Below are positions 33,050 to 46,500 of a stretch of DNA of 64,000 nucleotides, in pieces (the stretch's first letter is position 1; every line of letters begins with the position of its first letter). Where the stretch lies: contig VXSK01000023.1 in NCBI GenBank assembly GCA_009838035.1, positions 74,581-138,580 of the forward strand, in the 5' to 3' direction. The translations under genes and the position numbers were made by a program. The DNA is from Gammaproteobacteria bacterium. Its GTDB lineage: Bacteria; Pseudomonadota; Gammaproteobacteria; Steroidobacterales; Foliamicaceae. The notes under the pieces are model-generated. The model saw only the letters and a list, made by a program, of their open reading frames with translations, ran no database searches and was not told the origin of the DNA.

Positions 33050-33976
33050 ATGAGCACCCTGACCGATATTGAAAACCGGGCCGGACTCGCCCGCATCACC
33101 TGCGGCTGGAAAAAGCCGGAACTGCCGCTTTCCTGGGTGCGCCGCTACTGGCGGGACGTCCATAGCCCCGCCATTACACGCCGGGCCGGAATTTACGATT
33201 ACCGGCATTACCAGTACGACGAGGTCGATTCCGCGCTGTTCGGCGCCGTCAAGGGTGTCGAACTCGATTGTCCCCTCGGCGAGCGGCTCATGTGGAATTC
33301 GGACGTCCGTTACCTGGACGAGGCCGGCCTGGCGGCCTTCGACGCCATGCCGCCGCCCGAAGTGAAGCCCCACCTGCTCGGCGACATCGATCTGATCGTG
33401 GAAAGGAGCACGACCTATCGCGCCGTGGGTTCGAATGCCCTCACCCTGGTGGACCGCACGGCCGACGCCGCGCCCCAGGGTCCGCCGGCCAAACCGGCTT
33501 ACGCCCTGTTCATGCGGCAGCGGGCGGACGAATCCTCTTTTCGGGCATGCGTCCGGACCCTGGCCCGGCGCTGGTCGGAGTTCGATGGCGTGCTGCGGGT
33601 CCGCATGAGCCTGTTCGAAGTCCCGGACATGGAGGCCGAGCGCAAGGCCGGTTATCCGATCAAGACACACCCGACGGAGCAGCAATACCAGGCCACAATT
33701 GAAATCGTCTTGAGCGAGCGGGAGGTGGGCCGGGATCTGCTCAGTGACCGGGTCGGCGTGGATTGGGCAGGCCCGATCCGCACGATTCACGCCTATCCGG
33801 TGGCGGCCTGCTACACCAGTGTCTACGCCGGCCGGCCCACCCTCGTCGGGCTACGCGGATATGCCGCCCACCAGGCCATCGGGGCGCTGGGCGCGGACAA
33901 CCAGACGGAACCCGGCCTGCTGGAATGGATGTACGGGCCCGTGGCGAGCGATGGCACATCCGGAGAGGGCGTGTGA
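33050..33976 (+). CDS. hypothetical protein (possibly tandem EthD-like / dimeric alpha-beta-barrel domains)
   Basis: 308-aa product from the ATG at 33050 (MSTLTDIENRAG). Weak EthD-like pattern (RRYWRDVHSPAI...YRHYQY). Its stop overlaps the next gene's GTG start (GTGA). Confidence 0.55.
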   Translation: MSTLTDIENRAGLARITCGWKKPELPLSWVRRYWRDVHSPAITRRAGIYDYRHYQYDEVDSALFGAVKGVELDCPLGERLMWNSDVRYLDEAGLAAFDAMPPPEVKPHLLGDIDLIVERSTTYRAVGSNALTLVDRTADAAPQGPPAKPAYALFMRQRADESSFRACVRTLARRWSEFDGVLRVRMSLFEVPDMEAERKAGYPIKTHPTEQQYQATIEIVLSEREVGRDLLSDRVGVDWAGPIRTIHAYPVAACYTSVYAGRPTLVGLRGYAAHQAIGALGADNQTEPGLLEWMYGPVASDGTSGEGV

Positions 33977-35334
33977 ATCTCACGGTGGCCGAACGGCTGG
34001 TGGCGTTTGCCCGGAAACATGCCGGCGACGGCGTTCCGGACGATGTCCGCCACGAGGCGAAGCGCCTGTTGCTGAATCAGCTCAAGGCTTCGGTGGGCGC
34101 GACCGATCACGAAGTGGTGCGCATTCTCAACGACTGGGCCGGCGCGACCGGCGGCGAGGGCAATGCGCAGGTACTGTGGCTGGGGACGCGCATGGAGCCG
34201 GCCCGCGCGGCGATGGTGAACGGCGCCCTGTTCGAAGTGCTGGATTTTCATGACACCTACATTCCCTGCTACATGCACGCTACCTCCGCGGTACTGCCCG
34301 CCGTGCTGGCGGCGGCACAATCCGGCGGCAACAGCGGGCGTGACGTGGTGGACGCGCTGTCGCTGGGCATCGAAGTGGAATTGGCCTGCGCCCGGGCGCT
34401 GATGCCCACCGGCTACTACCGCGGTTTCGTACCGGCGGGACTGACGGGCGGGGTCGGCGCGGCCGCCGCCTGCTCGCTGCTGGCGGGACTGGACGGCCAG
34501 CGCATGCGCAACGCGCTGGCCATCGCCATGTGCACGGCCTTCGGCACTTACGAGTCGGTGGGGAGCATGACGCTGTCCTACATCACCGGTGCGACCGCCA
34601 TGTCGGGACTGACCGCGGCCGAACTGGCCGGGCGCGGAATGGACGCGCCCGCGACCGCCTTCGAAGGCGACAAGGGAATGCGCGAGTCGTACTCGGACGA
34701 ACCGGCCGGGAAAATCGAAGAAGTCCTCGATTCGCTGGCGGACCCCTGGTGCATCCACGGCCAGAGCTACAAGTCGGTGCCCACCGAAACTATCACCCAC
34801 GCCCCGATCGAATGCGCGCTCGCATTGCGGCCGAGGGCAAACGGCCGGAAAGTGGCGCGGGTGCGCATCCTGGTCGAGCCCATCGTCGTGGACATCTGCG
34901 ACGAACGCATGGAGCGCTTTGGCGATCCGCACAGCGAACTCACCGCGCGCTTCGACCTCTGTTTCTGCGTCGCGGCGGCCTGGCGGCGCGGCCGCTTTAC
35001 GCTGGACGAAATGCGCGAGCCCGCCTACACCGATCCCGATATCCTGGCGCTGCGCTCACGCATTGAACTGGTGCGCGACGAGACCCGCGAGAGTTTCGAC
35101 GGCTGCTCGATGGAAATCGAGTTCACCGACGGCACGACCGAGTCCACCTCGGTGGATGCGTTCCTCGGCAGCCCCGGCCGGCGGATGAGCGACGACGAAC
35201 TTGCCGGGATCTTTCGCGCCTCGGCGGAACCCGTATTGCCTGCCGGCCGTGTCGATGAAATTCTTGCAGCGGTCTGGGACCTGGAATCCGCCCCCGACAT
35301 CGACGGCATGATGTCGCTGTGCCGGCTCGCCTGA
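33973..35334 (+). CDS. MmgE/PrpD family protein (2-methylcitrate dehydratase-like)
   Basis: GTG start at 33973 (VNLTVAERLVAFARKH). About 453 aa with PrpD-family-like sequence throughout. Confidence 0.8.
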   Translation: MNLTVAERLVAFARKHAGDGVPDDVRHEAKRLLLNQLKASVGATDHEVVRILNDWAGATGGEGNAQVLWLGTRMEPARAAMVNGALFEVLDFHDTYIPCYMHATSAVLPAVLAAAQSGGNSGRDVVDALSLGIEVELACARALMPTGYYRGFVPAGLTGGVGAAAACSLLAGLDGQRMRNALAIAMCTAFGTYESVGSMTLSYITGATAMSGLTAAELAGRGMDAPATAFEGDKGMRESYSDEPAGKIEEVLDSLADPWCIHGQSYKSVPTETITHAPIECALALRPRANGRKVARVRILVEPIVVDICDERMERFGDPHSELTARFDLCFCVAAAWRRGRFTLDEMREPAYTDPDILALRSRIELVRDETRESFDGCSMEIEFTDGTTESTSVDAFLGSPGRRMSDDELAGIFRASAEPVLPAGRVDEILAAVWDLESAPDIDGMMSLCRLA

Positions 35335-35344
35335 GCCGCTTGCC

Positions 35345-36184
35345 ATGACGACCCTTTCACTGCCCGGCGGAGAAACGATCTGGTACCGGCGCTCCGGCAG
35401 CGGTGTTCCGGTACTGCACATCCATGGGTCGGCGTTCGGGCACCGCAATTTCGAGCGCCTGACGCCCTTCGTCGCCGACGACTTCGAGGTCATCGATTTC
35501 GATCTCCCCGGCTATGGCCAGAGCTCCGGCGCGCCGCGGGAGGGCGGTCTGGAAGGCGTTGCCGATCAGGTGCACGAGTTCATCGGGGCGCTGGAACTGG
35601 CGCCGGTGCACGTGCACGGGACTTCCTTCGGCGCGATGGTGGCCCTGATCCTTGCGGCGAAGTATCCGAAGTCGGTCGACCGGCTGGTGCTGAGCTGCTT
35701 TCTGGCCCGCTACGACGGCGCGGCCCGCATGATGCGCGCAACCTGGAGGCGGGCGGCGCGCGATAGCGGTATGGCGGCCGTAGCGGACCTGACCGCCGTG
35801 GCCGGTTTCGGGAGGGCGTTCTATGAGCGCCAGGAGGCCGAAGCGCAGCTCGCCTCGATGCGCGAGGCGTTCAGCCGGACCGACGTGGACGCGTTCGTGC
35901 GCGGCACGAAAACCCTGGAACAGGTGGACTTGAGTCCCTGGGCGCGCCGGATCAAAGCGCCCTCGCTATTGATCGCGGGGGAAGAGGACAACATGACGCC
36001 GTTCAGCCCGGCGGGAAGCGGGATCGGCTTTTCCTCGATTCGGCAGATGATCCCAGGCTGCGAACTGGTCGTTCTTCCCGACTGCGGCCACTACCTGGTG
36101 ATCGAACAGCCGGAAGCCACGGCGGCCCTGGTCGGGAAATTCCTTCAGGCCGTCCCCACGGTCAAACAGGGCGGTCGCCCTTGA
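35345..36184 (+). CDS. alpha/beta hydrolase
   Basis: 279-aa ORF with HGSAFG oxyanion region, nucleophile elbow HGTSFGA and a C-terminal His context (DCGHYLVIEQP). Confidence 0.8.
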   Translation: MTTLSLPGGETIWYRRSGSGVPVLHIHGSAFGHRNFERLTPFVADDFEVIDFDLPGYGQSSGAPREGGLEGVADQVHEFIGALELAPVHVHGTSFGAMVALILAAKYPKSVDRLVLSCFLARYDGAARMMRATWRRAARDSGMAAVADLTAVAGFGRAFYERQEAEAQLASMREAFSRTDVDAFVRGTKTLEQVDLSPWARRIKAPSLLIAGEEDNMTPFSPAGSGIGFSSIRQMIPGCELVVLPDCGHYLVIEQPEATAALVGKFLQAVPTVKQGGRP

Positions 36185-37031
36185 TCGTGACGCGCCGCCC
36201 CTTGCGCCGGGCGGGCCGGTAGTCCCAGATCGCCCGATGCATCGCGCAGCGGTTGTCCCAGAAGGCGACGTCGTTGCGTTCCCAGCGATACCTGATCTGA
36301 AAGTCGATGCCTTCGCAGTGATCGAAGAGGAATCCGAGCAGCGCTTCGCTCTCGGCCGCTTCGAGTTCGTTGATCCGGGTCGTGAACGTCCGGTTTACGT
36401 AAAGCGCCTTGCGGCCGGTCTCCGGGTGCGTACGGACGACGGGGTGAGTCGCGCTTGGATATTCCTTGCCGGTATCGTCCACACCGCGATCGGAGTAGCG
36501 CTCGCGGTAAACGTGTTCGGATTCGTGCAGGGCGCTCAGTCCTTCGAGAATCCGCTTCATCGGCTCCGATAGAGCGTCATAGGCCGCGTACATGTTTGCG
36601 AAGAGCGTGTCGCCGCCCACCGGAGGGAGGATGTGCAGTTGCAGGATCGTGCCGAGCGGCGGCACTTCGTCGCAGGACACGTCGGAGTGCCAGAATTCGC
36701 CGTTGGCGATCTTCGAGTCCCTGCTCACGTAGATTTCGAAGATTTCGGGATAGCCCGCCATCTGAGGGGCGGCTGGGTGCATGTGAAGCTCGCCGAACAT
36801 CCTGCCGATCCCGATTTGAGTTCGCGGGGAAATCTCCGTCTGGTCCTTGAAGAACAGCACCTGGTGCGCGAGCAGGGCCGCGCGAACCTGCTCGTACGTC
36901 GCGGGATCGAGGCCGTCCGCGAGATCGACGCCCCTGACTTCGGCGCCTAGCGCGGGCGCGTATTGCCTGATGTCGAGCGCCGGCCCGGCGCCATCTGGGG
37001 CTGTTCGCGCGTTGGAAAAGCGTTTCGGCAT
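36162..37031 (-). CDS. TauD/TfdA-family Fe(II)/2-oxoglutarate dioxygenase
   Basis: Internal ATG at 37031 (MPKRFSNART). HxD motif in FWHSDVSCD. Overall TauD-like. Confidence 0.8.
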   Translation of the reverse strand: MPKRFSNARTAPDGAGPALDIRQYAPALGAEVRGVDLADGLDPATYEQVRAALLAHQVLFFKDQTEISPRTQIGIGRMFGELHMHPAAPQMAGYPEIFEIYVSRDSKIANGEFWHSDVSCDEVPPLGTILQLHILPPVGGDTLFANMYAAYDALSEPMKRILEGLSALHESEHVYRERYSDRGVDDTGKEYPSATHPVVRTHPETGRKALYVNRTFTTRINELEAAESEALLGFLFDHCEGIDFQIRYRWERNDVAFWDNRCAMHRAIWDYRPARRKGRRVTIKGDRPV

Positions 37032-37060
37032 ATGCGATATGGTAGCTGCGCTTCGGTCCC

Positions 37061-37158
37061 GCCCTGCTGGCGCCCCCTTCTTCCTGGAGACGCCATCCTG
37101 GCTCGATTCTCGCTGTCCTTGCTCCAACGCTCCTGGAAGAAGGGGGCGCCAGCAGGGC
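37061..37158. repeat. hairpin repeat copy C: 24-bp perfect arms + 50-nt conserved core
   Basis: Arms GCCCTGCTGGCGCCCCCTTCTTCC (37061..37084) and GGAAGAAGGGGGCGCCAGCAGGGC (37135..37158) are exact reverse complements. The core is TGGAGACGCCATCCTGGCTCGATTCTCGCTGTCCTTGCTCCAACGCTCCT. Confidence 0.8.
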
Positions 37159-37227
37159 TACGGCAGTGCCAACCCTGGCCGTGGCACTTATCATGGAAAT
37201 CCTTCAGCGTGATGCCGGGGAGGACAC

Positions 37228-39219
37228 GTGAAGCCTGACAAGCAGCCCCATCCAACTCCGTCCGAACCGGAGGAGCCGGCGCGCGTCAACCGCAGGGATT
37301 TCGTTTCGTCCGCAATGGCGGCCGGGTTGGCCGCCGCGGGCGTGGGCGCCGCCGGCAAGGCGTCGGCAACGCAGGCGGCCGGCGATGCGCAGGAGCCGGG
37401 CGCGATGCCGCCCACGGCCGCGCAGGAGGCGATGGAATCCGAAATACCGGACGGCTATACGGCCGGGCAGGCGCGCGAGTATTTCGTCCGCAATCCGGGG
37501 TCCGATTTCATGCTGGACGTCATCCGGCGGCTCGGTCTCGAATACATCGCCACCAACCCGGGTTCCAGCTTCCGCGGACTGCAGGAATCCATCGTCAACT
37601 ACGGCGGCAACCAGGCGCCGGAACTGCTGACCTGCGTGCACGAGGAACAGGCGGCGGCCATGGCCCATGGCTACTACAAGGTCGGCGGAAAGCCCATGGG
37701 CGTGCTCTGCCACGGCACCGTGGGACTGCAGCACGCTTCCATGGCGGTCTATAACGCGTGGTGCGACCGGGCGCCGATGATTCTGCTCGCGGGCAACCAC
37801 CTGGAGGCGACGGATCGCCGGGCGGGCGTGGAGTGGTCGCATTCCGCGCAGGACTGCGTGCGGGTCATACGGGACTACATCAAGTGGGACGACATGCCGC
37901 TTTCCCTGCAGCACTACGCCGAGTCCATGGCCCGCGGCCTGAAGATCGCGATGACGCCGCCGGCGGGGCCGGTGGCCGTGGTGCTGGACGGGCATCTTCA
38001 GGAGGCCGAGGCGGGCGACCGGGATCTGGTCCCGACTGCCGTTTCCCTCAACCGGCCGCCCATCGGCGACGAGGGCGCGGTCGGGGAGACGGCTCGCATG
38101 CTGCTGGAAGCGGAATCGCCCGTCATCGTGGCGGACCTGATGGCCCGTGATCAGGAGGGCGTGGACCGGCTCGTCGCGCTGGCCGAGGCCCTGCAGGCGC
38201 CGGTGGTCAACCAGTTCGGGCGCATGAACTTCCCGAACACGCACTACCTCTCGCAGGGAGCGGCCGCGGTGGCCCAGGCCGACGTCGTGCTCGGACTGGA
38301 ACTCTTCGACGTCTGGGGCGTGATCAACACCGTGCGCGACCGGGTCCACCGGGACAGCGTGCGCAAGGCGCGGCCGGACGCACGCGTGATCAGCATTGGG
38401 TCCAACGACCTGTTCACCAGGTCCAACTACCAGAATTTCCAGCGTTTCTACCTTTCGGACCTCTCCATCGCCGGGGACGCGCAGGCCACGTTGCCCTTGC
38501 TGACCGATGCCGTGCTCTCGGCGATGACGCCCGCGCGGCGCGCGAGCAACGCCGCGAGGGAGGCCAGCTGGCGGGAGATCCACTCGCGCGCCCGCGGACA
38601 GGCCCTGGACGACGCGCGCTACGGATGGAACGCGGTTCCGGTGAGCACGGCCCGCCTCTACGCCGAACTGTGGCAGGTGGTCAAGGACCGGGACTGGGCG
38701 CTGGTCTCGGACGACGGCGCGCAGAGCCGATGGGCCCGCCGGCTGTGGCCCATCGAAAGGCACTATCAGTACATCGGCCGCTCGGGCGGGGCCGGTCTCG
38801 GCTACGGCGCTCCGGCGGCCGTAGGCGCGGCGCTGGCCCACCGCCCCCAAGGACGGTTCGCGGTCAACGTGCAGAAGGACGGCGACATGATGTACACGCC
38901 GGGCGCGTTCTGGACCGCCGCCTATCACGGCATTCCGCTGTTGACGGTGACCCACAACAACCAGGGCTACCACCAGGAATACATGCACCTGCAGCGCATG
39001 GCGGCGCGGCGCCAGCGCGGAATCGAAAGCAGTTGGCGGGTCGGCAACGAATTGCGCAATCCCGACATCGACCTGGCCGGCATTGCCCGCGCCACGGGCG
39101 TGTGGGCCGAGGGGCCGATTCTGGATCCGGCCGATCTGGGCCCGGCCCTGGCCCGCGCCGCGGAAGTCGTCGATGGCGGAGAGCCGGCATTCGTGGACGT
39201 TCGCTGTCAGCCGAGATGA
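37228..39219 (+). CDS. thiamine diphosphate-dependent enzyme (ALS/pyruvate oxidase superfamily) with twin-arginine signal
   Basis: GTG start with RBS GGGGAGGA. Tat motif NRRDFVSSAMAAGLAAAGVGAAGKASA. Pyr-domain Glu context VHEEQAAAMAHGYY. ThDP-binding motif KDGDMMY...THNNQGY. Confidence 0.8.
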   Translation: MKPDKQPHPTPSEPEEPARVNRRDFVSSAMAAGLAAAGVGAAGKASATQAAGDAQEPGAMPPTAAQEAMESEIPDGYTAGQAREYFVRNPGSDFMLDVIRRLGLEYIATNPGSSFRGLQESIVNYGGNQAPELLTCVHEEQAAAMAHGYYKVGGKPMGVLCHGTVGLQHASMAVYNAWCDRAPMILLAGNHLEATDRRAGVEWSHSAQDCVRVIRDYIKWDDMPLSLQHYAESMARGLKIAMTPPAGPVAVVLDGHLQEAEAGDRDLVPTAVSLNRPPIGDEGAVGETARMLLEAESPVIVADLMARDQEGVDRLVALAEALQAPVVNQFGRMNFPNTHYLSQGAAAVAQADVVLGLELFDVWGVINTVRDRVHRDSVRKARPDARVISIGSNDLFTRSNYQNFQRFYLSDLSIAGDAQATLPLLTDAVLSAMTPARRASNAAREASWREIHSRARGQALDDARYGWNAVPVSTARLYAELWQVVKDRDWALVSDDGAQSRWARRLWPIERHYQYIGRSGGAGLGYGAPAAVGAALAHRPQGRFAVNVQKDGDMMYTPGAFWTAAYHGIPLLTVTHNNQGYHQEYMHLQRMAARRQRGIESSWRVGNELRNPDIDLAGIARATGVWAEGPILDPADLGPALARAAEVVDGGEPAFVDVRCQPR

Positions 39220-39590
39220 GCGCGCGTTCGCGGATCCCCCTGCCGCCGGGCATTGCCGCCCCGGTGTTGCTGCTGTTGACTCTGGGCGCCACGCCTGCGT
39301 GGCCTGACGAACCCGGCGACGAGGCCAAGGAAGGCCTTGAGCTGTATATCAGCCAGCAGTGTTGGCAGTGCCACGGCTATGAAGGACAGGGAGGCGTGGC
39401 CGGCGTCCGTATTGCCCGGACCGTCCTGCCTTTTGAAGCGTTTGCGCGGCTGGTCCGGTTCACGAACCTGATGCCGGCCTATTCGCCGAAGGTGCTCAGC
39501 GACGATCAGCTCCGGCAGATCTACGACTATGTGCGTTCCATTCCGGAGCCGCCGCCGCTGGAAGAGATCCCGGAACTGGATTTCGACTAG
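39216..39590 (+). CDS. mono-haem c-type cytochrome (periplasmic)
   Basis: 124-aa product whose ATG overlaps the upstream stop (ATGA). Signal peptide. Single CWQCH haem-binding motif. Confidence 0.8.
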   Translation: MSARSRIPLPPGIAAPVLLLLTLGATPAWPDEPGDEAKEGLELYISQQCWQCHGYEGQGGVAGVRIARTVLPFEAFARLVRFTNLMPAYSPKVLSDDQLRQIYDYVRSIPEPPPLEEIPELDFD

Positions 39591-40747
39591 ATCGCGCAGC
39601 TCGTCGCGTCGAATCCATAGACCCACTCGGTGCTGGCGGCGCGCTGCCGTTTCTTGTCCCCCGTCAGGCGCTGGTACAGGTTCGTCTGCGCCCTGGACTG
39701 CAGGATGACGCGCGCCGTGCGTTCGCGGCGCACCGCCTGGTAGCGCGACAAGGCCACGTCCAGGTCGTCGAAGGCTTCAATGCACCGCGCCAGGATCGCG
39801 GCATCCTCGACCGCCATGGCCGAGCCCTGCGCCATGAAGGGCAGCATGGGATGGGCCGCGTCGCCCAGCAGCGCCACGCGTCCGTAAACCCATTGCTCCA
39901 GCGGGTCCCGGTCGAACAAGCCCCACTTGTAGAGCGCGCCCGCGGGAGTCGCCGACAGCAGTGACTGCACATCCTCATGCCAGCCGGCGAATTCCTTCTG
40001 CACTTCTTCGAGTGGCGCGGGCCGGTTCCAGCCCTCCTCCACCCATTCCCGCTGGGCGGCGATGGCCACGTAGTTCACCAGCGAACCGCCGCGCAGCACG
40101 TATTGCACGATATGCCGGTCCTCGCCGATCCACACGACCGACGCCCGGTCGGTTACGCGCTCCGGCAAGCCCCCCGCGGGGACCAGTGCGCGCCACGCGA
40201 CCTGCCCGCGGAACCGCGCCTCTGCGCGTTCGACAAGCTGGCCGCGCACGGTCGAACGCACGCCGTCGCATGCCACCAGCAGGTCGCCCTCCGCCGACGC
40301 GCCGTTGACGAACCGCACGGTGACGCTTGAGCCGTCCTGAGCGCTGCCCGTTGCCCGGTGTCCGGCGTAAAGGTCCGTGCCGCCCTGGTTCCTCACGGCG
40401 GAGAGCAGCGCGTCCAGCAGATCGCTGCGGTGAATGTGCAGCCAGGGAGCGCCGTGGGTCGATTCCATGACGTCCGCCAACGGTGCGTCGCCCATCAGCG
40501 CCGCGTCGTCGAAACGCCGGTAGCGGGAGGCAGGCGGACGCATGCCGCTGCGGTCCAGCGGCGCCCCAAGACCGAAATGCCTCAGCACGCGGGTGGCGTT
40601 GGGCGTCAGCATGATGCCCGCGCCGATCTCGCCGAATGCGGGGGCCTGCTCGTAGAGCTGCACGGAATGGCCGGCGCGGGACAGCGCCAGCGCGCAGGTC
40701 AGTCCCCCGATCCCTCCGCCCACGATAAGGACGCGCTGCGCCTGCAC
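39587..40747 (-). CDS. FAD-dependent aromatic-ring monooxygenase (salicylate/3-hydroxybenzoate hydroxylase-like)
   Basis: 386-aa ORF with VLIVGGGIGGLTCALAL (GxGxxG) and the LLGDAAHPMLPFMAQG motif. Confidence 0.85.
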   Translation of the reverse strand: MQAQRVLIVGGGIGGLTCALALSRAGHSVQLYEQAPAFGEIGAGIMLTPNATRVLRHFGLGAPLDRSGMRPPASRYRRFDDAALMGDAPLADVMESTHGAPWLHIHRSDLLDALLSAVRNQGGTDLYAGHRATGSAQDGSSVTVRFVNGASAEGDLLVACDGVRSTVRGQLVERAEARFRGQVAWRALVPAGGLPERVTDRASVVWIGEDRHIVQYVLRGGSLVNYVAIAAQREWVEEGWNRPAPLEEVQKEFAGWHEDVQSLLSATPAGALYKWGLFDRDPLEQWVYGRVALLGDAAHPMLPFMAQGSAMAVEDAAILARCIEAFDDLDVALSRYQAVRRERTARVILQSRAQTNLYQRLTGDKKRQRAASTEWVYGFDATSCAI

Positions 40748-40765
40748 GTTCGAACCCGTACGCCG

Positions 40766-41659
40766 TCAGGCTTTCAGCAGGAAATCGGCGATCGCCGCCT
40801 GAATCCTGTGCCGGGCCGGCTGCAGATGCGCGTAGTCCCCTCCGCCAGGGACCACGACCAGGGCCTTGTCCTCTGTCGGCAGCCGCTCGAAGTACTCGGC
40901 CCGCTGGATTCCGCCGTGCATGTAGGCGGCCTTGCCCGCGCCGCTGCCGTAGATCATCAGCACCGGGCAAGGCAGCGCCTCGGGGTCGGCCGGAATGCTG
41001 CCCCGCGCGTTCTCGCGCCGGATGCCGTTGGGCGAGCGCGGCTCATGCTCGACGACCCAGTCCGCCAGCGCACGGCGCATCTCCTCGGCCCCGTACTGCG
41101 CTTCGCGTTCGAAAAAGTACTCCCAGCCGCCGCTCCACCAGGGCTCTTCCGGCTCGAACGGAATCAGGTTGCCTCCGCCCAGCGCCGGGTCGAGCAGCAC
41201 CATGCGCGCCACCCGGTCCGGGTGCTGTTCGCCGTAGCGGGCCACGATGCGCCCGCCCCAGGACCAGCCCAGAAGGTGCGGCTGCGGGTGGCCCCCTGCC
41301 GCCAGCCAGTCCATGACGCTCGCCAGATCCTCGATCGCCACGTCCGTATCGACGGTGAGCGGATCGTCGGGAGCATCGGACCGGCCATATCCGCGCAGCG
41401 AAAACGTCACGGCAGCCAGGCCCCGCTCCACCAGGGCGTCCATCAGCGAGTAGTCCTCGCCGCCCGGAAAGCCGAAGTCGAAACCCGCCTGGCCGGTCAA
41501 GTTGGCGCCCTGCACCAGCACCACGACGTCGGCGCAACCGGGCGCAAGACCCTTGCTGCGGGTCGCGAGTTTCCCGGCCGGCCCCGGCACAAAGAAGTCA
41601 AAGCCTTCAGTCACGGCTTCCCCTGCACGGCGAGCCCGCATGATACATTCGCACTCCAC
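40766..41659 (-). CDS. alpha/beta hydrolase
   Basis: 297-aa ORF with nucleophile elbow GWSWGG. The start could instead be the ATG at 41641. Confidence 0.75.
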   Translation of the reverse strand: MECECIMRARRAGEAVTEGFDFFVPGPAGKLATRSKGLAPGCADVVVLVQGANLTGQAGFDFGFPGGEDYSLMDALVERGLAAVTFSLRGYGRSDAPDDPLTVDTDVAIEDLASVMDWLAAGGHPQPHLLGWSWGGRIVARYGEQHPDRVARMVLLDPALGGGNLIPFEPEEPWWSGGWEYFFEREAQYGAEEMRRALADWVVEHEPRSPNGIRRENARGSIPADPEALPCPVLMIYGSGAGKAAYMHGGIQRAEYFERLPTEDKALVVVPGGGDYAHLQPARHRIQAAIADFLLKA

Positions 41660-41680
41660 TCAGGCGCCGGGGGGCGGCAG

Positions 41681-42766
41681 ATGAACAGGAGAGACGTTTT
41701 GCAGGCATCGGCCATGGCAGTTTCGGCGGGGATTATTGGCGGCACGGCAACCGGAAAGACTTCCGCGAACGAGGCTGTGGAGGCGGCGCCTCGCACCCGG
41801 TCCGGGATGACGCTTACGCCGCCGGAAGAGTCCAATCCCCTGGAAGCGAAGATCGTGGTTTTCACGACGGTGTCGCCGGACGTGGACGCCAGCATCCGCT
41901 TCTACACCGAAGTGATGGGCATGAGCCTCGCCGACGAGGGCGCGCTGCCGGCGGATGCCACGACCGCCCCCGGCGTCGGCAAAGCCGGAAGGCGCTATGC
42001 GACGCTGCACATGCCGGAGCCCTCCCGTAGCGCACAGGTACGAGTGCTCGAAGCGCCGCAGGGGGCCGGGGCCAACCGCCCGCGGCCCGACTCCGGCCCC
42101 TGGGACCCAGGGCTGCTGGTCATGGAAGGCGGGACACGGGACCCGGCCGAGTCCTACCATCGCCTCGCGTCGGCGAACACCCCGGTGATCTCGCCGCCGC
42201 GTTACTACTATTTCCGCAACACGACCTGGCGACGCGACGTGGACGTGATGAGTTACGCGGCTTTCGGGCCAGGCGGAGAGCAAATGTTCATTACCGCAAA
42301 TGTGCGCGGCGACCGGCCGGATTGGACGTTGCCGGGGCTGCATTCCGGGTTTCACAACGCCGCCATCACCAGTCTCGACCAGCGCCCGGTGGACGCGTTC
42401 TTCGAGCAGGCGCTGGGACTCAAGCGCAGCTCGCAGCTCGAATGTTTCCAGCGCAACGCCAACGAACTGATAGGGGCGCCGAACGACAGTTACTTCCTGT
42501 GGGGCAACGTGGGCAGCGGGGTCAGCATCGAGGTGTGGGAATTCAAGGCGGACAGCGGCACCGTGTATCCGACCTCGCTGGACCGGACCGGACTGGCGAT
42601 GCTCACGATCCGCGTCAACGACCTCGACAAGTGCCGCGCGCAGTGCGACTCCAACGGTATAAAGCCCGTGGGCGAAGGCGCCCTGCCCATGCACGGCAAT
42701 CCGGAACCGGACGGCTTCACGCTACGCGGCGCGGTCGGCGAACTCATTGAAGTGATTGCTGCCTAG
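41681..42766 (+). CDS. two-domain VOC (glyoxalase/extradiol dioxygenase-like) protein with twin-arginine signal
   Basis: ATG at 41681. Tat motif MNRRDVLQASAMAVSAGIIGG. Two VOC-like domain starts (DASIRFYTEVMGM; VDAFFEQALGLK). The family assignment is pattern-based only. Confidence 0.65.
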   Translation: MNRRDVLQASAMAVSAGIIGGTATGKTSANEAVEAAPRTRSGMTLTPPEESNPLEAKIVVFTTVSPDVDASIRFYTEVMGMSLADEGALPADATTAPGVGKAGRRYATLHMPEPSRSAQVRVLEAPQGAGANRPRPDSGPWDPGLLVMEGGTRDPAESYHRLASANTPVISPPRYYYFRNTTWRRDVDVMSYAAFGPGGEQMFITANVRGDRPDWTLPGLHSGFHNAAITSLDQRPVDAFFEQALGLKRSSQLECFQRNANELIGAPNDSYFLWGNVGSGVSIEVWEFKADSGTVYPTSLDRTGLAMLTIRVNDLDKCRAQCDSNGIKPVGEGALPMHGNPEPDGFTLRGAVGELIEVIAA

Positions 42767-42778
42767 CCGGCGGATTCC

Positions 42779-44098
42779 ATGACGGATTCCGCATCCAGGG
42801 CCACCAGGCCTTTTGCCGCGACGGTCCTGTATCGTCGCTACGTGCTCGGGTTGTTGCTGGTCGTAATGACCCTCAACTACGCCGACCGCTATGTGATCGG
42901 CATCCTGATGCCGCAGATCAAGTCCGACCTTGGGCTGAGCGACACCCAGATCGGGTTCATAACCGGAGCGGCTTTCACGCTTTTCTACGCGCTGCTCGGC
43001 GTGCCGATCGCCCGCCTCGCGGACCGCCGCTCACGCCGCAGGATCATCGCCGCGGCGCTGGCGCTCTGGAGCCTGATGACCTGCCTGTGCGGGCTGGCCC
43101 GGTCGTTCGTCCAACTGGCGATATTCCGGGTACTCGTCGGGATCGGCGAGGCGGGCTGCACACCGCCCTCGCATTCCCTGATATCGGACTACTTTTCTCC
43201 CAAAGAGCGCGCCATGGCCATGGCCGTGCTCGGCCTGGGCTCGTCCCTGGGCGTGTTCCTGGCTTTCCTGGTCGGCGGCTGGATCACCGACGCCTACGGC
43301 TGGCGGGTCACGCTCGTGACCTTCGGCGCGCCGGGCGTGCTGATCGCGCTCGTGGTTCATTTCACGCTGCGCGACCCGCCGCGCGGCCACAGCGAAGGCC
43401 TCGAGGTCGCCGAAAAGGCGCCGCGCATGTACCCGGCATTCCGCAGCCTGTTGACCAAGAGAACATTCAACTACATGGTCCTGGGCGGCAGCATGTACGG
43501 CATGGTCAGCACCGCCCTGCTGGCCTGGCTGCCGTCCTTCTATACCCGCACCCACGGACTGGAAATCGCCACCGTCGGCACCTGGCTGGCCTTCACCAAG
43601 GCCCTGCCGCACGCCGCCGGCACGCTGCTCGGCGGACTGCTGGCCAGCCGGCTCGCGAAGTACGGAGAGAAGCCGCCCATCTATCTCTGCGCGGGCGTGC
43701 AGGTCCTGGCCGCGCCCTTCTACGCCCTGGTACTGCTTGTCCCCGATCCCACGGCGGCTCTGCTGTGGCTCATCGTGCCGGCCTGCGTGGGTGTGATGCA
43801 GGGGCCGGTGCTGTTCGCCACCATCCAGGGCGTCGCCGACGTCCGCACCCGCGCCGTCGCCTCGGCGCTCATGATCCTGATCATCAACCTGATCGCCGGC
43901 ATCATCGGCCCGCAGTCGGTCGGCGTGGCCAGCGATTTCCTGGCGGGTACGCTGGGCGCGGATTCGTTGGGCGTGTCGCTGCTGATCGTGTCCGTGACGT
44001 GCAGCCTCGGCTCCGCCGCCTTGTTCTACCTCGCCTCCCGCAGCATCGAACACGACCTCGTGCTGCCGGGTAGCGCGGTCAAGTCAGCCGAGGTCTGA
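42779..44098 (+). CDS. MFS transporter
   Basis: 439-aa polytopic ORF with the MFS loop motif (ARLADRRSRRRI). Confidence 0.85.
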   Translation: MTDSASRATRPFAATVLYRRYVLGLLLVVMTLNYADRYVIGILMPQIKSDLGLSDTQIGFITGAAFTLFYALLGVPIARLADRRSRRRIIAAALALWSLMTCLCGLARSFVQLAIFRVLVGIGEAGCTPPSHSLISDYFSPKERAMAMAVLGLGSSLGVFLAFLVGGWITDAYGWRVTLVTFGAPGVLIALVVHFTLRDPPRGHSEGLEVAEKAPRMYPAFRSLLTKRTFNYMVLGGSMYGMVSTALLAWLPSFYTRTHGLEIATVGTWLAFTKALPHAAGTLLGGLLASRLAKYGEKPPIYLCAGVQVLAAPFYALVLLVPDPTAALLWLIVPACVGVMQGPVLFATIQGVADVRTRAVASALMILIINLIAGIIGPQSVGVASDFLAGTLGADSLGVSLLIVSVTCSLGSAALFYLASRSIEHDLVLPGSAVKSAEV

Positions 44099-44194
44099 TC
44101 CGCCGGTGGCAGTAGCCACTGCGGAAGTTCTGTGGAAACATAGACGCGGCCCGGTCCAGGCATCGGGCGCGAAGCGGGAAAACGGGAATCAAAC

Positions 44195-45622
44195 ATGAGC
44201 GATAACTACGACGTCATCATCATCGGCGCGGGTTCGACCGGAATGCCAACGGGCATTTTCGCGGCGGAACGCGGTGCCAGGGTGCTGCAGATCGAGGCGG
44301 ACAAGCGGATCGGGGGGACGCTGTACTGGTCGTCGGGACAGATGAGCGCGGCCGGCACCCGGCTGCAGGAGGCCGCCGGGATCGATGACAGCGCCGAAGA
44401 GCACTACGAGGACGCCATGCGCATCTGCAACGGCACGATGGACCCGGCCCTGGGGCGCATGGCGATCGAAAACGCGAGCGACACGCTGGACTGGCTCACG
44501 GGCCTGGGCTTCGAGCCGCTGCCCGGCCACCCGGTCGCCGGCAGCGCCCATGAGCCCTACCGCACGCGGCGCTACTGCTGGGGCGAAAAGCTGGGCGTCA
44601 GCGTCCTCGAGGCCATGACGCCCCCGTTCGAACGGCTGATCGCGGACAGCCGCATCGATCTCAGGCTTGAAACGCGATTCACGCGGCTGCTCCAGGACGA
44701 TTCCGGCGCCGTGACCGGCGTGGAAGTGGAAACGGCGTCCGGATCCACGGAACGCCATTACGGACGGAATGTCGTCCTTGCTTCGGGGGGCTATGCGGCG
44801 AACCTCGAGATGTGGGCCGAAATCACGCCGCAGTACGCGCTGACCTCCTACTGCAATCCGTACTCGCGCGGCGACGGCATCCGCGCGGCGCGGGAACTGG
44901 GCGCCACGGTGTCGGGCGGCGACTCGTTCCTCACGACCGTGGCCGGCTTCCGGCAAGACGCCGACGACCCGCTGTCGGGCGCCCACCTGCGCCTGAACCC
45001 GGCCATTCGCAAACCCTGGGAGTTCTACGTGAACGGCGAGGGCAGGCGGTTCGTGCGCGAGGACCATCCCAGCATCGACCACATCGAACGGGCCGTGCTG
45101 GCATTGCCGGGCTTCATCCTCTACGTGATATTCGACGAACCGATGCGGCAGAACGCGCCGGTGATCACGCTGGAGACCCGCGAGGAAATGGCGGCGCGGT
45201 TCGGCAAGCACGCGCATTTTCTCAAGGCCGACAGCCTTGCCGATCTGGCCGCACAGATCGGAGCGGACCCCGAAACGCTGGAGCAAACCACCGCGCAGTT
45301 CAACCAGGCGGTGGAGTCGCGCCACGATCCCGAGTTCGGCCGCGAGCACATGATCCGCCCGATCGGCACGCCGCCGTTCTACGCGGTCAAGGCGGTCGGC
45401 TTTACCGTGATCAGCCCGGCGGGCATCGACGTCGACGCGGACTTGCGGGTCCTGCGCGAAGACGGCTCGGCGATCCCGAACCTGTATGCCGCGGGAGAGG
45501 CGCTGGGCTTCAGCAAGCTCAGCGGCAACGCCTTCGTGGGCGGCATGTCCCTGACGCCGGCGATCACCTTCGGACGCCTGCTCGGCCGGGACATTCTCAG
45601 TTGGGAGAACGGCGGGGCCTGA
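44195..45622 (+). CDS. FAD-dependent oxidoreductase (fumarate reductase / 3-ketosteroid dehydrogenase flavoprotein-like)
   Basis: 475-aa ORF with YDVIIIGAGSTG dinucleotide motif and C-terminal FAD contact region (LYAAGEALG). Confidence 0.8.
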   Translation: MSDNYDVIIIGAGSTGMPTGIFAAERGARVLQIEADKRIGGTLYWSSGQMSAAGTRLQEAAGIDDSAEEHYEDAMRICNGTMDPALGRMAIENASDTLDWLTGLGFEPLPGHPVAGSAHEPYRTRRYCWGEKLGVSVLEAMTPPFERLIADSRIDLRLETRFTRLLQDDSGAVTGVEVETASGSTERHYGRNVVLASGGYAANLEMWAEITPQYALTSYCNPYSRGDGIRAARELGATVSGGDSFLTTVAGFRQDADDPLSGAHLRLNPAIRKPWEFYVNGEGRRFVREDHPSIDHIERAVLALPGFILYVIFDEPMRQNAPVITLETREEMAARFGKHAHFLKADSLADLAAQIGADPETLEQTTAQFNQAVESRHDPEFGREHMIRPIGTPPFYAVKAVGFTVISPAGIDVDADLRVLREDGSAIPNLYAAGEALGFSKLSGNAFVGGMSLTPAITFGRLLGRDILSWENGGA

Positions 45623-45639
45623 CCGCCGGAAAGGGCCGC

Positions 45640-46500
45640 ATGTCCGGCATCGTCGACATCGTCTGCAATCTCTATACGCCGCAAACGGTAGCGGAGGGCC
45701 GCACCGGCCTGGACACAGCGTTCAGGGACCAGATCCGCATGCCCGAGGACATGCGCGGCGGCGTCGAGATCGCCGACTACCTCGCACGGATGGACCGAGC
45801 CGGGATCGAACGGTCGCTGCTCGTCGCCGTGCGCGCTGGGCAAATGGGCCTCAAGGACTCCTTCGAGGTTCCCTATGAATATGTCAGCGATGTGTGCGCG
45901 GAGTATCCGGCGCGCTTCTCGGGCCTGGCGGGGATCGACCCGACGCGCGGAATGGAGGGGCTGAAGGACCTGGAATACGCCGTCAAGGAGCTGGGCTTCG
46001 TCGGCGCCCACTGGTACCCGCACTGGTTCGCGATGCCGCCCGACGCGGCCCGCATGTATCCCTACTACGCCAAGTGTTGCGAGCTCGATATCCCGATCAT
46101 GATGCAGGTCGGCCAGAACCTCATCTACAGCCGCTCTAAGCGCCTGCCTTCGGTGGGCCGGCCGATCGCGCTGGACCCGGTGGCCGTCGATTTTCCCGAT
46201 CTGAAGCTGATCGGCATCCACATCGGCGTGCCGTGGACCGAGGAGATGATCGCCATGTGCTGGAAGCACGAAAATGTCTATACCGCCGGCGACGCTTACG
46301 CACCCCGCTACTGGCCGGCGCCTTTCGTCCACTACCTGAACTCGTACGGGCGCGACAAGGTGATGTTCGGCACCGACTGGCCGGTCATCGACCCCGAGCG
46401 CGCGGTGGCCGAAGTCAACGGACTGGAACTCAGGCCGGAATCCCGGCAGCGCCTGCTGCGCGACAACGCGCTGAAGGTCTTCCGGCTCCCCTCGCAGTGA
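45640..46500 (+). CDS. amidohydrolase-2 family metal-dependent hydrolase (paralog of 188..1060)
   Basis: ATG at 45640 (MSGIVDIVCNLYTPQ). Shares long stretches with the first gene (RFSGLAGIDPT, YAKCCELD, VGRPIALD, LKLIGIH, EEMIAM). Confidence 0.8.
   Translation: MSGIVDIVCNLYTPQTVAEGRTGLDTAFRDQIRMPEDMRGGVEIADYLARMDRAGIERSLLVAVRAGQMGLKDSFEVPYEYVSDVCAEYPARFSGLAGIDPTRGMEGLKDLEYAVKELGFVGAHWYPHWFAMPPDAARMYPYYAKCCELDIPIMMQVGQNLIYSRSKRLPSVGRPIALDPVAVDFPDLKLIGIHIGVPWTEEMIAMCWKHENVYTAGDAYAPRYWPAPFVHYLNSYGRDKVMFGTDWPVIDPERAVAEVNGLELRPESRQRLLRDNALKVFRLPSQ

Follow-up and report, generated by a model that had tools for sequence, protein, structure and literature searches.

Introduction

Can an enzyme that depends on thiamine diphosphate (ThDP) act outside the cytoplasm and pass its electrons to a cytochrome c? 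This question is raised by two adjacent genes on contig VXSK01000023.1 of a gammaproteobacterial genome (assembly GCA_009838035.1, family Foliamicaceae), from which a stretch of 64,000 nucleotides (nt), positions 74,581 to 138,580 of the forward strand, was analysed and is referred to here as the window. The first gene encodes a 663-residue ThDP enzyme that opens with a twin-arginine translocation (Tat) signal, whilst the second encodes a small c-type cytochrome with a secretion signal of its own. To our knowledge, every characterised member of the superfamily formed by pyruvate oxidase (POX), acetolactate synthase (ALS) and benzoylformate decarboxylase (BFDC) is either a cytoplasmic enzyme or acts on the inner face of the membrane, and those members that oxidise their intermediate use flavin adenine dinucleotide (FAD).

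The domain content and the catalytic residues of the enzyme, its Tat signal and its clade-specific cytochrome partner are all conserved, and the resulting module is conserved far beyond the window and matches no characterised system. From the combined sequence comparisons, we give about an even chance to the reading that the two genes form a self-contained operon for a Tat-exported, flavin-free ThDP 2-oxoacid (or aldehyde):cytochrome c oxidoreductase of the periplasm.

Results and discussion

A complete ThDP enzyme

The ThDP gene starts with a GTG codon, and its product is recognised by three Pfam models that all score above their gathering cut-offs: TPP_enzyme_N at residues 91–197, TPP_enzyme_M at residues 287–423 (PF00205, 39.9 bits) and TPP_enzyme_C at residues 497–658 (coordinates of all features are collected in Table 1). 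An AlphaFold 2 model of the protein (predicted local distance difference test 80.6, predicted template modelling score 0.82) is disordered over residues 1–60 and confident over the remainder, and it superimposes on structures from the superfamily with template modelling scores of 0.73–0.82. The sequence VHEEQAAAMAHGYY at residues 137–150 provides the context of the catalytic glutamate: E139 is invariant in 74 homologues and is also kept in the sister clade described below. The same 74 homologues show the binding motif for ThDP and Mg2+ to be invariant; this motif takes the form DG-X24-NN, which lies within the canonical GDG-X24–27-NN spacing, with a lysine replacing the first glycine. Counted between KDGDMMY and NNQGY, the spacer comprises 20 residues, which corrects the 22 given in a preliminary description of the locus. 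That description had also called the protein a complete enzyme of the ALS/pyruvate oxidase superfamily, and with three Pfam domains above cut-off, the catalytic glutamate and the Mg-ThDP motif this assignment stands: the 663-residue protein belongs to the ThDP-dependent decarboxylase (POX/ALS/BFDC) superfamily.

A twin-arginine signal at the N-terminus

The protein begins with MKPDKQPHPTPSEPEEPARVNRRDFVSSAMAAGLAAAGVGAAGKASA, followed by TQ, and this segment has the layout of a Tat signal: an R22-R23 motif, a mildly hydrophobic h-region of 18 residues and a lysine-bearing c-region that ends in A-S-A. The twin-arginine stretch VNRRDFVSSAMAAGLAAAGVGAAGKASA covers residues 20–47 and contains the core N-R-R-D-F-V, comparable to the [ST]-R-R-x-F-L-K type of Tat motif. 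When the isolated N-terminus was compared to NCBIfam, the top three matches were all Tat-signal models. The upstream start, and with it the RR signal, is supported by the GGAGG sequence that sits 4 nt before the GTG codon, and orthologues at 59–94% identity start at the same place as the window protein. Among the 120 best homologues of the enzyme (59–94% identity, nearly all 645–670 residues long), [NSD]-R-R-x-F-[LIV] is found at the equivalent place in approximately 112, the exceptions being N-terminally truncated calls. In order to reach more distant relatives, an exhaustive search was made over 1.84 billion cluster representatives, which returned 8998 matches: all full-length matches at 42–52% identity align from about residue 20 and all exhibit the RR motif, which is also present in the cultured Caballeronia and Novosphingobium members. 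Both the Tat signal that had been noticed at the start of the 663-residue open reading frame (ORF) and the conservation of its RR motif in orthologues, which had been suggested as a check, are thus borne out. On the strength of this signal, it appears highly probable that the enzyme is located in the periplasm.

A cytochrome c encoded next to the ThDP enzyme

The neighbouring 124-residue protein matches the Pfam model Cytochrome_CBB3 (PF13442; 37.6 bits, cut-off 27) and displays the features of a class I c-type cytochrome, namely a general secretory (Sec) signal, a single CxxCH site, a distal methionine and a length in the range of about 80–120 residues. The preliminary description had reported that the stop codon of the ThDP gene overlaps (ATGA) the start of a 124-residue signal-peptide protein with a single CWQCH site, and all of these elements are present. 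An identical 4-nt overlap occurs in six further loci (L001, L004, L006, L018, L061 and L072), and in the distant clade member P0130 the two genes abut with a 1-nt overlap. As the pair is flanked in the window by a gene in divergent orientation on its upstream side and by one in convergent orientation on its downstream side, the two genes can be regarded as a bicistronic unit.

The wider distribution of the pair was analysed by scanning one genome per GTDB species with two motifs that include Tat-clade-specific residues, and at least 562 relatives were identified among the 600 matches listed. Gene neighbourhoods were counted in the best 80 loci among these matches, 78 of which have enough downstream sequence to be assessed. 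The 80 loci stem from Gammaproteobacteria (Rariloculaceae/Woeseiaceae and others), Acidobacteriota (Vicinamibacterales, Bryobacteraceae and Terriglobia), Alphaproteobacteria (Xanthobacteraceae, Beijerinckiaceae and Rhodospirillaceae) and Burkholderiales. Of the 78 loci that could be assessed, 72 contain an ORF with a CxxCH site that begins between −26 and +154 nt from the ThDP stop codon; the background frequency of CxxCH is 6.5% of all ORFs in the same loci, with the partners themselves counted in. The cytochrome linkage in orthologues, a further check that had been proposed, therefore holds across Gammaproteobacteria, Acidobacteriota, Alpha- and Betaproteobacteria. The partner cytochromes form one orthologous family with the pattern G-C-[WY]-x-C-H-G...R-[IL]-A-P...M-P-x-Y...L-S-D..L..I..Y: in an alignment of 65 sequences (64 loci and the window), C..CHG, MP.Y and LSD..L..I..Y are kept, with MP.Y present in all 65, and the conserved methionine is the likely sixth ligand of the haem. 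In case of the deepest members of the Tat clade that were looked up, P0130 (42% identity) and P0126 (46%), a cytochrome gene also abuts the ThDP gene.

The module is furthermore found on plasmids of the cultured bacteria Caballeronia zhejiangensis, Burkholderia sp. SFA1 and Novosphingobium sp. KACC 22771. On plasmid p3 of C. zhejiangensis, the partner is a dihaem fusion of the orthologous cytochrome domain with a second class I domain (L093, 7848–8468), whilst on the Novosphingobium plasmid a second cytochrome c gene of 123 residues comes straight after the first (L094, 6716–7428). Such an appended second cytochrome c domain or gene in Caballeronia and Novosphingobium is as expected for an electron-transfer chain. 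The pair of C. zhejiangensis is represented by the proteins WP_244808613.1 and WP_244808614.1. The partner cytochrome is dihaem as well in L032, a locus from a metagenome-assembled genome; in Novosphingobium sp. KACC 22771, the cytochromes are followed by a 793-residue ORF for a probable TonB-dependent receptor.

A third conserved gene was sought by clustering all ORFs of the 80 loci, and none was found: the next commonest neighbour, an MFS transporter, is present in 10 of 80, and UbiD, molybdenum (Mo) subunits of the xanthine dehydrogenase family (7 of 80), TctC and amidohydrolases each occur in no more than 9. A dehydrogenase, a chaperone and a transporter were ruled out by this clustering as a third part of the system; with no third gene conserved, there is no separate dehydrogenase at hand that would use the cytochrome. 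Taken together, the genomic associations make it likely that the ThDP enzyme and the cytochrome c form a dedicated redox partnership.

Signal and cytochrome are both missing from the sister clade

The nearest relatives outside the Tat clade share 35–41% identity with the window enzyme, are 560–610 residues in length, align only from about residue 90 and carry no signal; in a joint alignment, these sisters lack window residues ~3–70, which comprise the signal and a linker. The core residues E139, H162, H205, R215, K219, W220, R444, Y581, R595 and R597 are common to the Tat clade and the sisters. Since the RR motif is kept down to 42% identity and the signal-less sisters lack residues 3–70, the signal can be taken as clade-defining and not as an artefact of annotation: a clade is defined by this predicted Tat-type export signal. 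It could be argued that the RR stretch does not work for export at all, or that it stays uncleaved and only anchors the enzyme to the cytoplasmic side of the membrane, in which case the enzyme would be cytoplasmic and its adjacency to the cytochrome a coincidence of operon structure. Although the Tat-signal model TIGR01409 stays slightly under its cut-off in the window copy, we judge this explanation extremely unlikely, given that the motif, the h-region and the AxA site are kept over hundreds of sequences from several phyla, that the sisters are devoid of the whole 70-residue N-terminal segment and that signal and periplasmic cytochrome co-occur throughout the clade.

No cytochrome c neighbour was seen in the five signal-less sisters with readable context. 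The first of these genes precedes an aldehyde dehydrogenase (with TctAB) and the second a flavin mononucleotide (FMN)-dependent 2-hydroxyacid dehydrogenase, near which MFS transporters are encoded; a third comes after LigAB and Rieske genes, a fourth lies beside a molybdoenzyme and the last is without an informative neighbour (the sister loci and proteins examined include L085, L086 and L088–L090, and P0142, P0148 and P0143). The adjacency to an FMN 2-hydroxyacid dehydrogenase, an aldehyde dehydrogenase or LigAB/Rieske genes suggests that 2-oxoacid decarboxylation within catabolic pathways is the common function of this uncharacterised family. As the sisters without a signal are also without a cytochrome and the Tat clade has both, the presence of the signal peptide and that of the cytochrome go hand in hand. 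The arrangement in the sisters resembles the classical one of a decarboxylase with a downstream dehydrogenase; by analogy, cytochrome c would take that adjacent slot in a periplasm that is free of nicotinamide adenine dinucleotide (NAD). An oxidative mechanism is supported by this exchange of neighbours: the cytoplasmic sisters adjoin NAD-type aldehyde dehydrogenases, whereas the periplasmic clade adjoins cytochrome c.

Comparison of the two clades also reveals a cluster of His, Gln, Glu and Met residues after the NN motif. H576, H582, Q583, E584, M586, Q589 and M591 are each conserved to at least 90% in the Tat clade and to at most 25% in the signal-less sisters; H587 is invariant in the Tat clade yet not clade-specific by this measure. 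H567 is likewise invariant in the Tat clade and different in the cytoplasmic sisters, so that the run of such residues extends from 567 to 591. Possible roles of the cluster after the NN motif are in the substrate pocket, in a metal site, along an electron path or in docking.

Family placement, substrate pocket and the flavin question

The closest solved structures by sequence are BFDCs (PDB ID: 4q9d, E value 8.6e-25; Pseudomonas putida BFDC, approximately 2e-22) with about 22% identity, and these are followed in the PDB by cyclohexane-1,2-dione hydrolase (CDH), benzaldehyde lyase (BAL) and glyoxylate carboligase (Gcl). Foldseek searches with the AlphaFold 2 model returned BFDC-like 4q9d, HACS, BAL and BFDC as top matches (E values of approximately 1e-32 to 1e-30), and as a family discriminator Foldseek does not separate BFDC, BAL, HACS, ALS and Gcl, which all lie at about 1e-30. 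The best NCBIfam match is PRK08327 (NF006203) with 254.7 bits against an equivalog cut-off of 456, the second is BFDC (NF005485) with 158.1 bits against 493, and the Xsc model TIGR03457 reaches 85.1 bits against 676; no pyruvate oxidase or PoxB model appears among the 25 best NCBIfam matches. With all scores below the cut-offs, the protein falls outside all curated families, and by curated thresholds or defining features it is not a BFDC, PoxB, Xsc, ALS or PRK08327 protein.

Residues S113, E139 and H162 pair with Ser26, Glu47 and His70 of BFDC in the HMMER alignment, and none of these residues varies within the clade. In case of BFDC His281, HMMER pairs H374, which lies in a region with an insertion where the pairing is ambiguous. 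H339 was considered as a special catalytic histidine and discarded, as it is part of an FP.TH.L motif that is common to CDH and Gcl and is hence a feature of the superfamily. Extending the BFDC alignment places Q583 and H587 at the positions of the phenyl-pocket residues A460 and F464: the replacement of these two residues by Gln and His suggests that the substrate is polar.

An alternative is that the enzyme is a ThDP-dependent aldehyde or 2-oxoaldehyde:cytochrome c oxidoreductase (with glyoxal, methylglyoxal or glycolaldehyde as examples of substrates) in which ThDP attacks the carbonyl group directly and which performs no decarboxylation, proceeding from hydroxyalkyl-ThDP by oxidation to acyl-ThDP and hydrolysis. 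The architecture and the evidence are the same as for the reading favoured here, the polar Q583 and H587 would suit such substrates and a glyoxalase-fold protein with a Tat signal is encoded 2 kb away in the window. This glyoxalase-fold (VOC) neighbour is, however, not kept in other lineages, and the His70 equivalent together with the contexts of the sisters (an FMN 2-hydroxyacid dehydrogenase of the upstream type and an aldehyde dehydrogenase of the downstream type) fits 2-oxoacids better; we therefore consider an aldehyde-specific enzyme to be very unlikely.

With regard to flavin, the relevant region is a loop in the middle domain at the site of the Gly-rich loop of FAD/ADP-binding relatives. 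NPVILAGGGV of CDH and RPVIVAGGGV of Gcl align to SPVIVADLMA here, the clade consensus being PVIVADRMA, and the loop rather resembles that of FAD-free BFDC (...VLGPDV). As the Gly-rich FAD/ADP loop is missing, the ThDP enzyme is probably flavin-free. The preliminary description had asked whether the central domain keeps FAD-binding residues: with ADLM in place of the AGGG loop, FAD binding is probably not kept.

Against this it can be held that the enzyme is a flavoenzyme akin to PoxB or pyruvate oxidase, in which FAD or another organic cofactor is bound to the middle domain in a non-canonical manner and relays electrons from ThDP to cytochrome c. Every characterised oxidising member of the superfamily relays via FAD, Tat export is typical for tightly bound redox cofactors and the middle domain is intact as judged by its PF00205 score. 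On the other hand, the AGGG of CDH and Gcl is replaced by ADLM here and by ADRM in the clade consensus, which is closer to the loop of FAD-free BFDC, and the NCBIfam ranking places BFDC second whilst offering no pyruvate oxidase or PoxB model, such that this alternative seems unlikely to us.

The missing flavin loop also fits with a periplasmic ThDP enzyme that is not oxidative but works as a BFDC-, BAL- or HACL-like decarboxylase, lyase or carboligase and sets free an aldehyde, with the cytochrome serving an unlinked dehydrogenase such as an aldehyde dehydrogenase dependent on pyrroloquinoline quinone or Mo. The nearest solved relatives BFDC, BAL, HACS and CDH are indeed non-redox enzymes, the BFDC-type residues are conserved and Mo subunits of the xanthine dehydrogenase family are found close by in the 7 loci mentioned above. 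In spite of this, it is the cytochrome and no dehydrogenase gene that is conserved with the ThDP gene; across phyla, the occurrence of the cytochrome family follows that of the ThDP clade, often with translational coupling of the two genes, and the cytoplasmic sisters that are paired with aldehyde dehydrogenases have no cytochrome. A purely non-oxidative enzyme is hence, in our assessment, rather unlikely.

A proposed mechanism

The reading favoured here, an exported and flavin-free oxidoreductase that uses cytochrome c, can be formulated as the following sequence of steps. The 663-residue subunit would fold, dimerise and take up ThDP and Mg2+ in the cytoplasm; cofactor loading is placed in this compartment because the active sites for ThDP arise where two subunits meet and ThDP is not supplied in the periplasm. 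The folded holo-dimer would then be exported via Tat, whilst the co-translated 124-residue cytochrome c would leave the cytoplasm unfolded via Sec and have its haem attached in the periplasm. There, the enzyme is proposed to bind a polar 2-oxoacid (an aldehyde being less likely), whose decarboxylation on ThDP would yield the enamine/carbanion, as it does in BFDC. Rather than an aldehyde being released, the dedicated cytochrome c would oxidise the enamine in two one-electron steps without a flavin, after which acyl-ThDP would be hydrolysed to the carboxylate and the reduced cytochrome would feed a terminal oxidase. From the conserved features of the pair we infer the export of a holo-dimer, the absence of FAD, the direct transfer to haem, the class of substrate and the link to respiration, as well as the oxidative decarboxylation with cytochrome c as acceptor that the preliminary description had already proposed.

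ThDP enamines are very strong reductants, with FAD, lipoamide and Fe-S clusters as natural oxidants and ferricyanide and dichlorophenolindophenol as artificial ones. We tentatively suggest, as a possibility that we rate below the general oxidoreductase reading, that haem c is a previously unrecognised natural oxidant of ThDP enamines: in this case a Tat-exported holo-dimer free of flavin, Fe-S clusters and coenzyme A (CoA) would pass its electrons singly, via a ThDP radical, to the cytochrome.

Several observations weigh against the proposed oxidoreductase. ThDP lies deep at the dimer interface in this superfamily and we know of no precedent for direct transfer to an external haem, such that a relay between ThDP and haem might be needed. 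The absence of FAD is read from a single loop, and on the window N-terminus TIGR01409 gives 13.9 bits, just under its cut-off of 16.7. An adjacent cytochrome is missing in 6 of the 78 assessable loci; no consistent electrostatic complementarity of the partners was found, with isoelectric points of 4.2–9.6 for the cytochromes and 5.4–7.9 for the enzymes. Finally, the gene context across the 80 loci is too variable to point to a substrate.

Local context in the window

The remaining features of the locus are included in Table 1. Both neighbours named in the preliminary description, a divergent TauD-like dioxygenase and a VOC protein with a Tat signal 2 kb downstream, were recovered by their Pfam domains. 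The pair was also considered as a clue to the substrate and set aside, this context being limited to the closest relative or to this lineage and not found across the clade; the TauD-like gene was confirmed as a neighbour in the closest relative, L001. The TauD-like ORF is listed from a TTG codon, and homology to taurine dioxygenase sets in at residue 51, so that translation probably initiates at the ATG of 'MPKRF' near 37031. With 290.7 bits against the equivalog cut-off of 313 for taurine dioxygenase, the substrate of this protein is uncertain. Besides the ThDP enzyme, the VOC protein is another unusual candidate for transport via Tat, and its gene lies 2 kb from the module.

In the intergenic region between the TauD-like and ThDP genes, the TATCAT region of the promoter-like site recurs in the collinear region of L001. 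The same intergenic region in the window holds a 29-nt inverted repeat (37061–37158, 97% complementary, 40-nt spacer) that is unique in the window; because it is absent from the otherwise collinear region of L001 (5880–6000), the repeat looks like a small palindromic insertion. A search of Rfam for a ThDP (TPP) riboswitch or another upstream RNA element gave nothing meaningful, with only sub-threshold matches to microRNA precursors that arise from this repeat. The flanks at 33763–36184 and 39587–46500 have a catabolic appearance, with MmgE/PrpD, two alpha/beta hydrolases, a 3-hydroxybenzoate-6-monooxygenase-like FAD enzyme, an MFS transporter, a FAD_binding_2 oxidoreductase and an Amidohydro_2 protein; these genes are not clade-wide.

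Table 1. Features of the ThDP enzyme/cytochrome c locus and its neighbours; positions are those of the window.
Feature	Position	Strand	Basis
TauD-like gene, divergent	36162–37127	−	PF02668, 234 bits
Promoter-like site GTGCCA-17-TATCAT upstream of ThDP gene	37166–37194	+	Consensus scan, weak
Shine-Dalgarno sequence GGAGG, 4 nt 5' of GTG start	37219–37223	+	Sequence reading
ThDP enzyme gene, 663 residues, PYR, middle and PP domains	37228–39219	+	Pfam PF02776, PF00205, PF02775
Predicted twin-arginine signal peptide, residues 1–47: RR 22–23 (nt 37291–37296), h-region 26–43, c-region K44-A-S-A47	37228–37368	+	Sequence reading
Catalytic Glu E139 (with E140), predicted ThDP activation	37642–37647	+	HMMER alignment, E139 = BFDC E47
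His162, equivalent of catalytic His70 of BFDC	37711–37713	+	Alignment to P. putida BFDC; invariant, including sister clade
Middle-domain loop P298-VIVADLM-305, at Gly-rich loop site of FAD/ADP-binding relatives	38119–38142	+	Alignment to CDH, Gcl
ThDP-Mg2+ binding motif D551-G-D...N577-N578	38878–38961	+	Sequence and alignment to BFDC GDGS...NN; invariant in 74 homologues
His/Gln/Glu/Met cluster after NN motif: H576, H582, Q583, E584, M586, H587, Q589, M591	38953–39000	+	Alignment of Tat clade and sisters
Monohaem class I cytochrome c gene, 124 residues	39216–39590	+	Pfam PF13442, PF00034
ATGA overlap, ThDP stop TGA (39217–39219) with cytochrome ATG at 39216; translational coupling	39216–39219	+	Sequence reading
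Predicted Sec-type signal of cytochrome, residues 1–28	39216–39299	+	
CWQCH haem c site, cytochrome residues 49–53, sole CxxCH	39360–39374	+	
Probable axial Met86 of cytochrome	39471–39473	+	M86 in MP.Y motif
Glyoxalase/VOC-fold protein, 361 residues, twin-arginine signal MNRRDVLQASAMAV	41681–42766	+	PF00903

Significance and comparison with known systems

Should the proposed oxidoreductase be real, it would extend ThDP enzymology to a further compartment and a further electron acceptor, add ThDP to the cofactors that are carried across the membrane by Tat and constitute an entry point into respiration for a periplasmic substrate; an exported ThDP enzyme would come as a surprise to specialists of ThDP and Tat alike. 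If haem c is the oxidant, hundreds of lineages from soils and sediments would couple the extracellular oxidation of organic acids to their respiration, amongst them Woeseiaceae/Rariloculaceae, Acidobacteriota, Xanthobacteraceae and Burkholderiales. The host bacteria are abundant yet mostly uncultured inhabitants of soils and marine sediments, and the cultured hosts Caballeronia, Burkholderia and Novosphingobium make the question directly testable.

The preliminary description had been unable to map the locus to a characterised system, and this agrees with the open-access full-text literature, in which we found no report of a Tat-exported, periplasmic or cytochrome c-linked member of the superfamily and no periplasmic member of this clade. 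In terms of structure, the closest systems are BFDC (MdlC, EC 4.1.1.7) and BFDC-like enzymes (PDB IDs: 1bfd, 4q9d, 6qsi and 7orx), which have in common with the window enzyme the three-domain fold, the equivalents of Ser26, Glu47 and His70 and the lack of a Gly-rich FAD loop. BFDC differs in being cytoplasmic, non-oxidative and without a cytochrome partner, and in exhibiting A460 and F464 in the pocket where the window enzyme has Gln and His. The 'thiamine pyrophosphate-requiring proteins' of PRK08327 type correspond to the cytoplasmic sister clade, sharing 35–41% identity and the core residues, but they possess neither the signal nor the H576/H582/Q583/E584/M586 cluster.

Pyruvate oxidase/PoxB, a pyruvate:quinone oxidoreductase formerly termed 'pyruvate dehydrogenase (cytochrome)', belongs to the same superfamily as the window enzyme. 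PoxB sets a precedent in that it oxidises the ThDP enamine and, independently of CoA, delivers the electrons to the respiratory chain; its relay is FAD, its acceptor is ubiquinone and it works on the cytoplasmic side of the membrane. The window enzyme, in contrast, has no FAD loop, is periplasmic according to its signal and has a soluble cytochrome c as presumed acceptor. In pyruvate:ferredoxin oxidoreductase (PFOR) and oxalate oxidoreductase, a metal centre oxidises the ThDP-bound intermediate stepwise, one electron at a time and without a flavin; these enzymes belong to an unrelated ThDP family, employ Fe-S relays, are cytoplasmic and oxygen-sensitive, and most use CoA. In chemical terms, the window system may be likened to PoxB minus the flavin, or to PFOR minus the Fe-S clusters.

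The genetic logic of the pair, on the other hand, is that of the sulfite dehydrogenase SorAB, the nicotine dehydrogenase NicA2-CycN and flavocytochrome c sulfide dehydrogenase, in which a Tat-exported, cofactor-loaded subunit is encoded beside a small Sec-exported monohaem cytochrome c to which it donates its electrons. The catalytic subunits of the SorAB/NicA2-CycN type contain molybdopterin or flavin, not ThDP, and are unrelated in sequence to the window enzyme. As in SorAB, a catalytic subunit with a Tat signal and an adjacent cytochrome c with a Sec signal are conserved as a pair, here in 72 of 78 loci.

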